A stretch of DNA of 64,000 nt, taken from a phage. The notes under the pieces are model-generated. The model saw only the letters and a list, made by a program, of their open reading frames with translations, was not told the DNA's origin and made no database searches. The translations under genes were made by a program, and so were the position numbers. Location: sequence record PQ724394.1, one strand, 5' to 3'. Shown piece after piece: positions 56,133-57,085 of this stretch (positions are counted from its first letter, which is position 1; every line of letters starts with the position of its first letter).

Positions 56133-56140
56133 TATTTATA
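56133..56140 (-). promoter_or_regulatory. late promoter (TATAAATA)
   Basis: TATAAATA about 28 nt upstream of ATG at 56106; part of duplicated cassette. Confidence 0.55.
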
Positions 56141-56141
56141 C

Positions 56142-56169
56142 AAAAAAGGCCCAACCTTTCGGAAGGGCC
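56142..56169 (-). terminator. intrinsic terminator (copy 2 of duplicated cassette)
   Basis: GGCCCTTCC-GAAA-GGTTGGGCC hairpin plus T6 run. Confidence 0.65.
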
Positions 56170-56189
56170 TTTAACCTAGGGTAACCTTG

Positions 56190-56480
56190 TCGGGGTTCCA
56201 CCTGCTAGGCAAGTGTTTGTACGAAACGCCGGGATTCGAACCCGGTTATTAAGCAGTTGACGCTACTCAATATTTTTTTAAAAGGCCATATCTCGACCAT
56301 ATCCGAACGTTCCGTCAAAAACGCTACTCGGCTTACGGCAAAGATATTTCCTCGAATCGATAATTCGATGCGCCGTTTCAGCTGTGATAGTAAAGAACCA
56401 GAACACAGTAAAACTGTGGGAGGAACTATACTCCAGGGAACTTCAGTCCGACGACTTACCGGTAGCGACCCGGTTTCTTG
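56190..56480 (-). ncRNA. possible small stable RNA(s) with tRNA-like T-arm, adjacent to tRNA cluster
   Basis: CCGGG-TTCGAAT-CCCGG T-arm-like element at 56229-56245 without foldable anticodon or D arms; several palindromes; analogous position to T4 stable RNAs C and D. Confidence 0.3.
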
Positions 56481-56482
56481 TT

Positions 56483-56558
56483 TGGTCGAGACAGTAGGGA
56501 TCGAACCTACGACCCAGGACTTAGAAGGTCCTTGCTCTTCCTTCTGAGCTATGCCTCG
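56483..56558 (-). tRNA. tRNA-Arg (anticodon TCT)
   Basis: Hand-folded cloverleaf: 7-bp acceptor stem, D arm GCTC/GAGC, anticodon loop CTTCTAA, T arm GTAGG-TTCGATC-CCTAC, CCA encoded. Confidence 0.8.
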
Positions 56559-56562
56559 TATT

Positions 56563-56637
56563 TGGCGGACATGCATGGATTCGAACCATGGACCAATTGA
56601 TTAACAGTCAACTGCTCTACCGCTGAGCTACACATCC
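56563..56637 (-). tRNA. tRNA-Asn (anticodon GTT)
   Basis: Hand-folded cloverleaf: acceptor stem with two G-U pairs, D arm GCTC/GAGC, anticodon loop CTGTTAA, T arm CATGG-TTCGAAT-CCATG, CCA encoded. Confidence 0.75.
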
Positions 56638-56641
56638 GAAT

Positions 56642-56715
56642 TGGTGGCCCTGGGTGGAATCGAACCACCATCCAGCGATTATGAGTCGCTCGCTTGACCG
56701 TCCAGCTACAGGGCC
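56642..56715 (-). tRNA. tRNA-Met or Ile-lysidine (anticodon CAT)
   Basis: Hand-folded cloverleaf: perfect 7-bp acceptor stem, anticodon loop CTCATAA, T arm GGTGG-TTCGATT-CCACC, CCA encoded. Confidence 0.75.
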
Positions 56716-56783
56716 TTAATTCTATTATGAAAGGCTCTTTGAGGGAAGAACCTTTGGTAATAGAGGGTATTAATGATAGAGTA

Positions 56784-56810
56784 ATAATATCACATAATTC
56801 TTAAAGCATA
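56784..56810 (-). promoter_or_regulatory. MotA-type promoter candidate upstream of tRNA cluster
   Basis: TATGCTTTA box, 12-nt spacer, TATTAT; oriented toward the tRNA genes. Confidence 0.35.
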
Positions 56811-57085
56811 TTAATGTAATCAAGTTTAATAGAAGCAATCTTCAAAGGATTTTTAAAGATGTCGTATTCGACCAACCCATTTTCATTTGCCGTATAAAAA
56901 GTAAAGTTAACAGAATTATAGCGTTGGCTGTTAACTTTGAGTTTAACATCGCTTGAACTACGGCCAATATTAACCTGTTGAACATCAAGCACAGCATCTT
57001 TGCCGTAATTTCGAATCAACAACTCAGCTGCAACCTGATCGGATTTATAGCCATTCTCTGGATTAGTAACCTTAACGTATAACAT
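56801..57085 (-). CDS. hypothetical protein (94 aa)
   Basis: ORF. Confidence 0.4.
   Translation of the reverse strand: MLYVKVTNPENGYKSDQVAAELLIRNYGKDAVLDVQQVNIGRSSSDVKLKVNSQRYNSVNFTFYTANENGLVEYDIFKNPLKIASIKLDYINML

Follow-up and report, generated by a model that had tools for sequence, protein, structure and literature searches.

The presence of three tRNA genes on the minus strand of the phage sequence PQ724394.1, followed by 290 nt of structured sequence, raises the question of whether this locus is the remnant of a larger tRNA set or also encodes stable RNAs of its own. We analyzed the locus within a stretch of 64,000 nucleotides of this record, referred to here as the window. An earlier note on the same DNA had proposed a reduced tRNA set plus either a stable RNA or a decayed tRNA gene, and had correctly pointed out that T4 encodes tRNAs together with a pair of small stable RNAs in the corresponding location. 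Our data retain the stable RNA and speak against the decayed tRNA gene. With a probability of about 90%, the locus represents a T4-type operon of tRNAs and small stable RNAs in a Dhakavirus-like T-even phage, which would be expressed as one minus-strand transcript. All parts of this operon were identified in the window (Table 1); the transcription unit, its processing and the stability of its RNAs in the PQ724394.1 phage would follow those of T4, from which all transcript limits at the locus were transferred via homology.

Table 1. Features of the tRNA and small stable RNA locus in the order of the predicted transcript; coordinates are those of the window.
Feature	Position	Strand	Basis
MotA-type middle promoter	56784-56808	minus	motif enrichment, conservation, T4 literature
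Predicted transcribed leader with conserved hairpin (AAAGGUUCUU...AAGAGCCUUU)	56716-56783	minus	conserved with T4, RB10, ATK47
tRNA, anticodon CAT, CCA encoded	56642-56715	minus	ARAGORN; RF00005 62.6 bits
tRNA-Asn (GTT), CCA encoded	56563-56637	minus	ARAGORN; RF00005 71.0 bits
tRNA-Arg (TCT, reads AGA), CCA encoded	56483-56558	minus	ARAGORN; RF00005 63.8 bits
rnaD (T4 species 2 RNA) orthologue, 115 nt	56367-56481	minus	homology to annotated T4 and RB10 rnaD
A/U-rich spacer GAAUUA at the rnaD/rnaC junction	56361-56366	minus	aligned with T4 spacer AAAUUA
rnaC (T4 species 1 RNA) orthologue, 141 nt, tRNA mimic	56220-56360	minus	homology, covariance model
Conserved 3' trailer with hairpin CACUUGC-CUA-GCAGGUG (56215-56199)	56170-56219	minus	conservation, fold
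Predicted intrinsic operon terminator, GGCCCUUCC-GAAA-GGUUGGGCC then U6	56142-56169	minus	fold, T4 homology

The 290 nt located 3' of the tRNAs had been described as a single structured element. The region is indeed structured, but it holds two RNAs, rnaD and rnaC, and showed 84 to 95% identity to the rnaD-rnaC region of 680 phage records (at least 80% query coverage). Over the full length of T4 rnaC, 136 of 139 positions are identical (about 98%), and the window copy differs in addition by a 2-nt AA insertion, two extra A's in an A-rich linker. The covariance model of the rnaC family recognized a single copy in the window, with a score of 152.5 bits, and the rnaC part of the region has a folding z of -4.1. 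As in the T4 family, rnaC is located inside or at the end of the tRNA cluster and on the same strand, and rnaD sits between tRNA-Arg and rnaC, as expected for the rnaD family. The order of tRNA-Arg, rnaD, 6-nt spacer, rnaC, trailer and terminator is shared with T4 (rnaC/rnaD at 70908-71171 of NC_000866). The 5' arm (about 47 nt) and the 3' arm (about 22 nt) of T4 rnaD are nearly identical to those of the window; T4 rnaD is 119 nt long with a T4-type centre, whereas the rnaD of the window has 115 nt and a central hairpin of the T2/ECp13 type. In T4, rnaC has been detected as a discrete stable RNA by Northern blot, with a probe whose sequence matches the first 58 nt of the window's rnaC exactly (PMC9697503). 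Neither rnaC nor rnaD is represented by a family in Rfam, and permissive thresholds returned only chance-level matches on rnaC, rnaD and the terminator (tRNA-Sec, BjrC68, isrK and BTnc231).

The earlier note had also proposed three minus-strand tRNAs with encoded CCA between 56483 and 56715, and a Rfam covariance scan as the way to check them. ARAGORN folded all three as cloverleafs, and RF00005 accepted each of them over model positions 1-71 with a score above its gathering score of 29 bits. The tRNA-Arg resembles the RB10-type tRNA-Arg found beside rnaD and is not of the T4 type. The CAT anticodon of the tRNA previously assigned to methionine was confirmed, but the amino acid was not, since all 22 of the best E. 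coli matches listed, drawn from the head of the ranking and at intervals further down, are annotated as tRNA-Ile. This tRNA has the same anticodon arm, GCGACTCATAATCGC, as E. coli tRNA-Ile(CAT), and overall it shares 80% identity with Ile2, compared with 72% for elongator Met and 65% for initiator Met. Its acceptor pairs are G-C, G-C, C-G, C-G, C-G, U-A and G-C, and therefore include C4-G69 and C5-G68, which TilS reportedly uses to discriminate Ile2 from Met, a finding attributed to Ikeuchi and colleagues (2005). This similarity and these identity elements indicate that the gene most probably encodes an AUA-reading tRNA-Ile2 (lysidine) and not a tRNA-Met. It would decode AUA once the host TilS converts C34 to lysidine, while tRNA-Asn would decode AAC/AAU and tRNA-Arg AGA, so that the three tRNAs would supplement the host pool for an A+T-rich phage. 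The open reading frames of the window use AUA at 7.3 and AGA at 4.9 per thousand codons.

Analysis of the region upstream of the tRNAs supported the MotA-type promoter that had been noticed before. MotA middle promoters have the consensus (a/t)(a/t)(a/t)TGCTT(t/c)A near -30, a distance of 11-13 bp and a sigma-70 -10 element TAnnnT, and the letters ATATGCTTTA, N12, TATTAT at 56808-56784 fit this consensus, with the MotA box TGCTTTA at 56808-56802 and the -10 hexamer at 56789-56784 of the minus strand. The pattern was found 9 times in the 64-kb window against 1.4 expected, a number reached in none of 100 shuffles, and T4, RB10, ECp13 and ATK47 have the identical box, spacer and -10 hexamer at the corresponding place. 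In T4, a middle promoter is sited immediately upstream of the tRNA cluster (PMC2330249). The motif, its conservation and the T4 literature thus support a MotA-type promoter, whose dependence on MotA/AsiA is putative, with a predicted transcription start near 56777. The stop codon that ends the trna.2 homologue (ORF 56801-57085) shares nucleotides with the MotA box. The leader hairpin has a minimum free energy of -17.6 kcal/mol. At the other end of the locus, the trailer has hardly diverged between the window, MN04, JS98 and T4, and is retained in JS98 despite the deletion of rnaC. The terminator is homologous to the T4 hairpin GCCCCGACC-GAAA-GGUUGGGGC followed by U5, and was missed by a simple terminator scan because of a 2x2 internal mismatch. 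A stem between the 5' leader and the 3' trailer, in the style of rRNA operons, was also considered and dropped, its energy of -23.1 kcal/mol lying inside the shuffled expectation (-18.1 +/- 4.0).

In T4, the tRNAs and the species I and II RNAs derive from one precursor transcript, whose end lies past the species I RNA gene (PMC2330249). By analogy, the MotA-dependent middle promoter would drive a single minus-strand transcript, to which read-through from promoters upstream may contribute, running through the three tRNAs, rnaD and rnaC and stopping at the intrinsic terminator. Host tRNA-processing enzymes would cut this precursor into mature pieces: RNase P would make the 5' ends of the tRNAs, an endonuclease would cleave the A/U-rich spacers, 3' exonucleases would trim the products back to their stems, and rnaD and rnaC would build up as stable structured RNAs. 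RNase E, RNase III and RNase P process the precursor of the T4 tRNAs and stable RNAs, and the spacer between rnaD and rnaC is presumed, in line with the T4 literature, to be a site of endonucleolytic processing.

The eight tRNAs of the T4 operon form two subclusters with the segB homing endonuclease gene between them, whereas the window has only three (the Ile2-type CAT tRNA, Asn and Arg), all encoding CCA, and no segB; both share trna.4, trna.3 and trna.2 upstream, the sequence of the middle promoter and a single terminator after rnaC. The closest overall relatives are the Dhakavirus phages JS98, JS10 and IME08, which carry the same three tRNAs within flanks that are about 96-98% identical. 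In JS98 the spacer and rnaC are cleanly deleted, and the central hairpin of rnaD is of a third type. Within this genus, rnaC is present in the PQ724394.1 phage and MN04 and absent from JS98, JS10 and IME08. JS98 and MN04 also have two extra ORFs (orf138 and orf137) between trna.2 and the first tRNA, which are absent from the window.

To describe the fold of rnaC, we compared 27 homologues from nine phage genera, over which both the length (139-142 nt) and the fold are conserved. It was a BLAST walk seeded with an Edwardsiella/Kosakonia-type variant that supplied the informative sequences; pattern scans of viral and metagenome contigs returned only near-identical copies and one further Tegunavirus sequence. 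In Karam-, Gelderland-, Moon- and Kanagawavirus, rnaC lies amid the tRNA genes and not at the 3' end. The covariation among these sequences revealed that rnaC folds as a tRNA mimic, in which a 7-bp acceptor-like stem is stacked on a T-arm. The acceptor-like stem, P1, pairs 56359-56353 with 56228-56222 (alignment columns 2-8 and 138-144) and is contiguous with the 5-bp stem and 7-nt loop UUCGAAU of the T-arm, the perfect hairpin CCGGG-TTCGAAT-CCCGG that had been seen before and that we located at 56245-56229 of the minus strand. The earlier observation that anticodon and D arms are missing also proved correct: two hairpins stand in their place. P2 is a long irregular hairpin of 26 pairs with the apical loop UUGACG (56318-56313), followed by the A-rich linker, and P3 is a 10-bp hairpin with the 6-nt loop CGUCAA (56262-56257). 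Compensatory changes occur in 34 of the 54 pairs of the fold, and 92.5% of the cells are paired, against 38-46% when the partners are slid, a score reached in none of 500 shuffles. The acceptor-like stem changes between A-U and G-C from one sequence group to another (10 A-U versus 17 G-C), and in Tegunavirus both of its U.U mismatches are replaced by Watson-Crick pairs. The annotated 5' end of T4 rnaC lies 1 nt upstream of P1 and is not the end expected from RNase P cleavage.

The loops of P2 and P3 are exact complements in all 27 homologues, with 162 of 162 cells paired. One compensatory change replaces A-U by G-C in four Marfavirus sequences and another replaces C-G by U-A in two Tegunavirus sequences; one-sided changes were absent from the 162 cells, which none of 500 shuffles equalled. 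Two such independent events argue for a kissing loop of 6 bp, so that the two hairpins replacing the D and anticodon arms would pair with each other through their 6-nt loops. The kissing partners could be two molecules instead of one; the helices, extending some 20 bp out and 22 bp back, would permit an intramolecular kiss. While the locus itself was already known, the fold of rnaC backed by covariation, with its kissing loop, is the result added here.

The acceptor-like stem of rnaC is followed by U-A-C-A-A; CCA is not encoded, and charging is therefore unlikely. Stem position 3 is A-U or G-C, without the G3-U70 alanine pair, and there is no tag reading frame. Among the tRNA models, the best match to rnaC was tRNA-Sec, with 16.9 bits against a gathering score of 47 (E = 2). 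In the tRNA-like domain of tmRNA, in the bacterial Y-RNA-like YrlA and in the tRNA-like structures of plant viruses, an acceptor-like stem is coaxial with a T-arm while the remaining tRNA body has been replaced. In both respects rnaC is like these RNAs; it differs from them in lacking CCA, G3-U70 and a tag ORF, and is a member of none. The sole match to YrlA (RF02553) in the scan, with 26.9 bits against a gathering score of 69, fell on the tRNA genes (56607-56677) and not on rnaC or rnaD, ARAGORN found no tmRNA, and the only Rfam match of that kind was a weak permuted-tmRNA hit over the real tRNAs. A loop-loop closure like that of the rnaC body is not known from the tmRNA, YrlA or plant-virus families. 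The HIV TAR-TAR* and ColE1 RNA I/RNA II complexes are kissing loops of six base pairs; the loops of rnaC are likewise complementary throughout, with the complementarity ending at the stems, but both are contained in one 141-nt RNA.

The organization of rnaD is different: its 5' and 3' arms are invariant, the 5' arm bearing a 5-bp hairpin with a 7-nt loop (56474-56458), and the central hairpin between them is variable and in the window of the T2 type. Among the homologues compared, the centre occurs in three unrelated versions that replace one another, with indels. Of the 32 pairs in the consensus fold, 11 show compensatory changes, and 93% of its cells are paired against 33-48% with slid partners; this support is moderate because the fold was built from the very 13 sequences on which it was evaluated. 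The 3' end of rnaD resembles an acceptor strand and is followed by CCA in T4 and RB10, which suggested a second tRNA mimic; this was not supported, as the CCA is not conserved, no T-arm precedes the 3' strand and no tRNA model matched. Two hairpins of rnaD that the simple terminator scan reported, the apical one (56418-56404) and the 5' one read on the reverse strand, are in our view not terminators. The loop of the 5' hairpin contains CGCUA, complementary to the repeated UAGCG of rnaC, a motif that is not conserved across the genera having rnaC. A convergent SNP in rnaD has been reported for a T4-like phage adapting to a semi-permissive host (PMC12685909).

Other readings of the region have to be weighed against these data. 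If the 290 nt were one or more decayed tRNA genes from a larger T4-like set, with no function of their own, the perfect T-arm would be expected, as would the location of rnaC directly between tRNA genes in several genera, where a tRNA would be; one GenBank record labels the homologous stretch tRNA-Phe, and ARAGORN also called a 97-nt tRNA-Phe(aaa) at 56219-56315. However, the acceptor pairing on which that call depends lacks compensatory changes and is disrupted in 8 of 18 homologues, while the alternative stem between the 5' and 3' ends covaries, and the tRNA models gave no match at threshold. Compensatory changes in well over half of the pairs, with length and fold kept, are not the behavior of a pseudogene. 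The identity of about 98% to T4 rnaC and the compensatory changes over nine genera led us to reject this reading, which is very improbable; an ancient tRNA origin of rnaC is possible. Even less credit can be given to the annotation of hypothetical proteins over rnaC and rnaD. Many deposited genomes have CDS features here, and the window offers ORFs on the minus strand (56205-56576, 123 aa; 56278-56406, 42 aa) and on the plus strand (56257-56547), but the longest crosses two tRNA genes, the substitutions track base pairing and not codons, the interchangeable centres of rnaD with their indels do not suit a coding sequence, and T4 rnaC has been seen as RNA (PMC9697503). The chance that the region encodes small proteins is practically negligible.

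A more serious alternative confines rnaD, rnaC and the trailer to a role in cis, as a structured 3' module that shields the tRNA precursor from 3' exonucleases and guides its processing, the stable RNAs being by-products with no function in trans. This would agree with their position at the 3' end of the operon ahead of the terminator, with the clean loss of rnaC from JS98-type phages that keep trailer and terminator, and with the decades that have passed without a function being found (PMC3014915). The rnaC copies that lie mid-cluster in four genera do not fit such a role, the loops and the T-loop, invariant or covarying over nine genera, are more constrained than a protective hairpin needs, and the convergent adaptive SNP in rnaD suggests a phenotype (PMC12685909). 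We consider a purely cis-acting module unlikely on this balance, in spite of the older T4 literature, which links 3'-end processing near the species 1 RNA with the yield of some tRNAs.

Returning to the operon with two stable RNAs of its own, we tentatively suggest that rnaC, through its acceptor/T-arm module, may serve a tRNA-binding factor as ligand or decoy; the same module would allow tRNA-like processing and stability. In its strongest form, rnaC would be a dedicated tRNA mimic, an acceptor/T-arm minihelix on a rigid body locked by an intramolecular kissing loop and acting in trans as such a decoy or ligand, and to this we assign only a small probability. Possible candidates for this factor are host defence nucleases that attack tRNAs and enzymes of tRNA processing or modification. 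If so, rnaC and rnaD would be host-range determinants and not relics, and the presence or absence of rnaC inside one genus would provide a natural, ready-made experiment. Phage tRNAs counter host immunity directed at tRNAs, and for this reason a conserved tRNA mimic beside them merits attention. The role of rnaC and rnaD is expected to be accessory and host-dependent, because rnaC is deleted in JS98 and the rnaD SNP arose convergently on a semi-permissive host (PMC12685909).

The locus as such is a routine genome feature, the tRNA cluster, middle promoter and species 1 and 2 RNAs of T-even phages having been described decades ago, and the role of rnaC and rnaD is a 50-year-old question. With a fold backed by covariation, a kissing loop and a natural deletion in sister phages, the role of rnaC becomes directly testable. 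Annotation pipelines mislabel the locus, calling the Ile2-type tRNA a Met and rnaC a tRNA-Phe or a hypothetical protein. Deletions of the T4 tRNA region are viable on laboratory strains, and rnaC is dispensable in JS98-type phages.

We identify the 290 nt downstream of the three tRNA genes, by alignment, as both stable RNAs of T4, rnaD (species 2 RNA, RNAD) and rnaC (species 1 RNA, RNAC), and not as one decayed tRNA. A BLAST search of phage records with positions 56140-56482 matched 814 records, 680 of them with a single match that spans 80% or more of the query and is 84-95% identical. In properly annotated records (T4 NC_000866, RB10, ATK47), rnaD and then rnaC occupy the matched stretch, and the limits of rnaD, spacer, rnaC and trailer were set by alignment to T4. 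Rfam 15 holds no family for either RNA, and a permissive scan gave chance-level matches only. All the sequence features listed in the earlier note occur where it placed them. Its interpretation, a stable RNA or a decayed tRNA here, was largely right and needed three corrections: the stable RNA is two RNAs, there is no pseudogene, and the CAT tRNA is read as Ile2 instead of Met. Loci of this kind are already known, and the instance in the window is ordinary. In many deposited T4-like genomes, a 'hypothetical protein' CDS lies across rnaC and rnaD (the equivalent of 56220-56481).

Features of the tRNA and stable RNA locus, in minus-strand order
Feature	Position	Strand	Details
MotA-type promoter	56808-56784	minus	TGCTTTA, 12 nt, TATTAT
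tRNA, anticodon cat	56642-56715	minus	ARAGORN; Rfam tRNA model 62.6 bits
tRNA, anticodon gtt	56563-56637	minus	ARAGORN; Rfam tRNA model 71.0 bits
tRNA, anticodon tct	56483-56558	minus	ARAGORN; Rfam tRNA model 63.8 bits
rnaD	56481-56367	minus	115 nt; first base 1 nt past CCA of tRNA-Arg, as in T4
rnaD-rnaC spacer	56366-56361	minus	GAAUUA
rnaC	56360-56220	minus	141 nt; identity with T4 136/139, plus two extra A's
3' trailer	56219-56170	minus	conserved
Terminator	56169-56142	minus	hairpin and U-tract; orthologue of T4 terminator

The three minus-strand tRNAs claimed earlier were recovered by ARAGORN, and all exceed the gathering score of the Rfam tRNA covariance model (29 bits). CCA is encoded at the end of each gene, and the intergenic spacers are 4 nt long. 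For the CAT tRNA, the evidence points to tRNA-Ile2 rather than the tRNA-Met proposed before. All the best matches listed in the E. coli genome collection, in the top and lower ranks, are annotated tRNA-Ile, and E. coli tRNA-Ile(CAT) has an identical anticodon arm, GCGACTCATAATCGC. The acceptor stem carries C4-G69 and C5-G68, the same as E. coli tRNA-Ile2, the pairs of elongator tRNA-Met being U4-A69 and A5-U68, and its first seven bases, GGCCCTG, are those of T4 tRNA-Ile. In tRNA-Ile2, C34 is converted to lysidine and the tRNA reads AUA; with the CAT tRNA read as Ile2, the trio would decode AUA, AAC/AAU and AGA. The use of AUA and AGA in the 72 long ORFs of the window (7.3 and 4.9 per thousand codons) and the G+C content of 39% fit the usual view that T-even tRNAs supplement host-rare codons. 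The JS98, MN04 and RB10 records label the CAT tRNA as tRNA-Met, as most deposited T4-like genomes do for the Ile2-type tRNA.

The MotA-type promoter described upstream of the cluster also held up. Its box, spacer and -10 recur unchanged in T4, RB10, ECp13 and ATK47, in the same place directly behind trna.2, and the box-plus--10 pattern is enriched in the window, with nine sites observed against 1.4 expected, a number reached by 0 of 100 shuffles. These sites lie on both strands (13220, 21625, 24951, 30720, 33355, 42518, 52484, 55676 and 56784), and several are probably further middle promoters of the PQ724394.1 phage. In the passages of PMC2330249 that cite Broida and Abelson, the main source of T4 cluster transcription is a middle promoter immediately ahead of the tRNA genes; this transcription stops after the species I RNA gene, and both small RNAs and the tRNAs derive from its primary transcript as their precursor. 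A transcription unit like that of T4 is expected by orthology in the window phage. The T4 cluster is processed by RNase P, endonuclease cuts in A/U-rich spacers and exonucleolytic trimming; by analogy, RNase P would cut the tRNA 5' ends, the A/U-rich spacers would take the endonuclease cuts and trimming would finish the precursor. The leader between promoter and first tRNA (56716-56783) is conserved with T4 and forms a hairpin with about 17 base pairs and an energy of -17.6 kcal/mol; pairing of leader with trailer, when tested, was not above chance.

The analysis of rnaC revealed a tRNA mimic, which is no tRNA, tmRNA or YrlA. Homologues were collected by BLAST, by pattern scans of viral and metagenome contigs and with a covariance model based on the 18 sequences gathered first. 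With this model the window contains exactly one copy, scoring 152.5 bits, and 27 distinct homologues scoring 85-157 bits are recovered from Tequatro-, Mosig-, Dhaka-, Moon-, Kanagawa-, Teguna-, Karam-, Gelderland- and Marfavirus loci. The consensus fold has four parts. P1, a 7-bp acceptor-like stem, pairs the 5' end with the 3' end; its third pair is G-C in 17 sequences and A-U in 10, and its two U.U mismatches are replaced by U-A and C-G in the two Tegunavirus sequences. A long irregular hairpin (P2) takes the place of the D arm and, after an A-rich linker, a 10-bp hairpin with a 6-nt loop (P3) that of the anticodon arm. The T-arm-like hairpin CCGGG-TTCGAAT-CCCGG, seen already in the earlier reading, lies inside rnaC at 56245-56229; it is canonical (5 bp, loop UUCGAAU), and its position directly before the 3' strand of P1 is exactly that seen in tRNAs. 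Compensatory changes occur in 34 of the 54 pairs; 92.5% of cells are paired, against 38-46% with the partners slid by 1-3 columns, and 0 of 500 shuffles reached the covariation score. Compared with tRNAs, rnaC departs in model score, D arm, anticodon arm and CCA, and agrees in its acceptor/T-arm half. A 97-nt 'tRNA-Phe' called by ARAGORN was rejected: its acceptor pairing, ACGGAAC/GUUUCGU, lacks any compensatory change and is disrupted in 8 of 18 sequences. The tRNA-Phe annotation of this stretch in one GenBank record is a similar false architecture.

The P2 apical loop, UUGACG (56318-56313), and the P3 loop, CGUCAA (56262-56257), are exact reverse complements. Both loops have 6 nt in all lineages and are almost invariant, the stems flanking them covary freely, and the complementarity ends at the closing pairs. 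The two departures are both compensatory, UUGGCG/CGCCAA in four Marfavirus sequences and UUGAUG/CAUCAA in two Tegunavirus sequences; 162 of 162 cells are paired with no one-sided change, and the pairing or covariation score was reached by 0 of 500 shuffles. Since the aligning model does not contain this interaction, the alignment is not biased towards it. A kiss within one molecule is geometrically plausible, because P2 extends for about 20 bp as far as a 3-nt bulge and its apical stem, the kiss and P3 would run about 22 bp back; a kiss between molecules, giving a reciprocal dimer, is possible. We found no description of this kissing loop in the searchable literature, which leaves out the original 1970s papers.

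For rnaD, covariation gives the predicted fold moderate support, as the structure was derived from the same 13 distinct sequences. A 5' hairpin (5 bp, 7-nt loop) changes its closing pair from A-U to G-C in four sequences, and a long-range helix joins GUCGUCG with the 3' CGGCGCA, an adjacent pair switching from U-A to A-U in three. Between invariant arms, the central hairpin (56385-56435) exists in three unrelated versions (T4, T2/ECp13 and JS98 type), all able to pair. Motifs of rnaD turned up in no genera other than the T-even-like Tequatro-, Mosig- and Dhakavirus; in the remaining genera, rnaC directly follows a tRNA. An 8-mer, GAGUAGCG, occurs twice in rnaC (56320-56328 and 56259-56267), in the 5' strands of the P2 apical stem and of P3, and its UAGCG is complementary to CGCUA in the loop of the rnaD 5' hairpin; this match may be coincidence, since the repeat is missing in Karam-, Marfa- and Kosakonia-type variants.

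JS98-type Dhakaviruses (JS98, JS10, IME08) have cleanly lost the spacer and the whole rnaC (window 56220-56366 against 2652-2905 of the JS98 locus, L001) and retain rnaD, trailer and terminator; rnaC persists in the window phage and in MN04. This amounts to a natural knock-out inside a single genus, indicating that rnaC is dispensable in some settings. The trailer AACACUUGCCUAGCAGGUGGAACCCCGACAAGGUU (56170-56219) is almost invariant in the window phage, JS98, MN04 and T4, exceeds the rnaD centre in conservation and is kept where rnaC is deleted; it may be a processing site. Across genera (rnaC loci L007-L010 and L054-L061), an A-rich spacer of 5-7 nt (AAUAA, AAUUA, AACAA) follows the CCA of the preceding tRNA, and on the 3' side the stem is followed by U-N-C-A-A, whose CAA is no CCA. 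These conserved flanks (window 56361-56366 and 56215-56219) look like processing signals.

In reviews and recent papers, RNAC and RNAD are still described as RNAs of unknown role (PMC3014915, PMC9697503, PMC12685909). When the T4-like phage BW1 evolved on semi-permissive E. coli, the same rnaD SNP appeared in all three lines (PMC12685909). In rnaC, the P2 and P3 loops as well as the T-loop stay conserved through nine genera, a constraint greater than a passive hairpin would need. The main rival, a role in cis alone that serves the processing and stability of the precursor, has to be weighed against an accessory, host-dependent function in trans, in which the tRNA-like half of rnaC would engage a tRNA-binding factor. 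We favour the trans function, with low confidence, because of the rnaC deletion in the JS98 type, the convergent rnaD SNP and the nine-genus loop conservation. The remaining interest of the locus lies in the biology of the two RNAs, which the fold, the kissing loop and the natural loss of rnaC make accessible to experiment.

The nearest relatives of the region are the Dhakavirus T4-like coliphages JS98, MN04 and Esco_phi_B-01 (about 95-98% identity), and the phage collection contains no record with an identical tRNA region. The upstream neighbours of the cluster are homologues of T4 trna.4, trna.3 and trna.2, and trna.2 adjoins the promoter as it does in T4. In JS98 and MN04 the gap between trna.2 and the first tRNA (1553-2425 of their loci, L001 and L002) holds two extra ORFs of about 870 bp in total, orf138 (RB69 ORF151c-like) and orf137, and the window (56716-56800) is without both. 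The rnaD centre of the window is of the T2 type despite its Dhakavirus-like flanks. The tRNA region is mosaic in appearance, consistent with the homing-endonuclease-driven exchange reported for the T4 tRNA region (PMC2330249).
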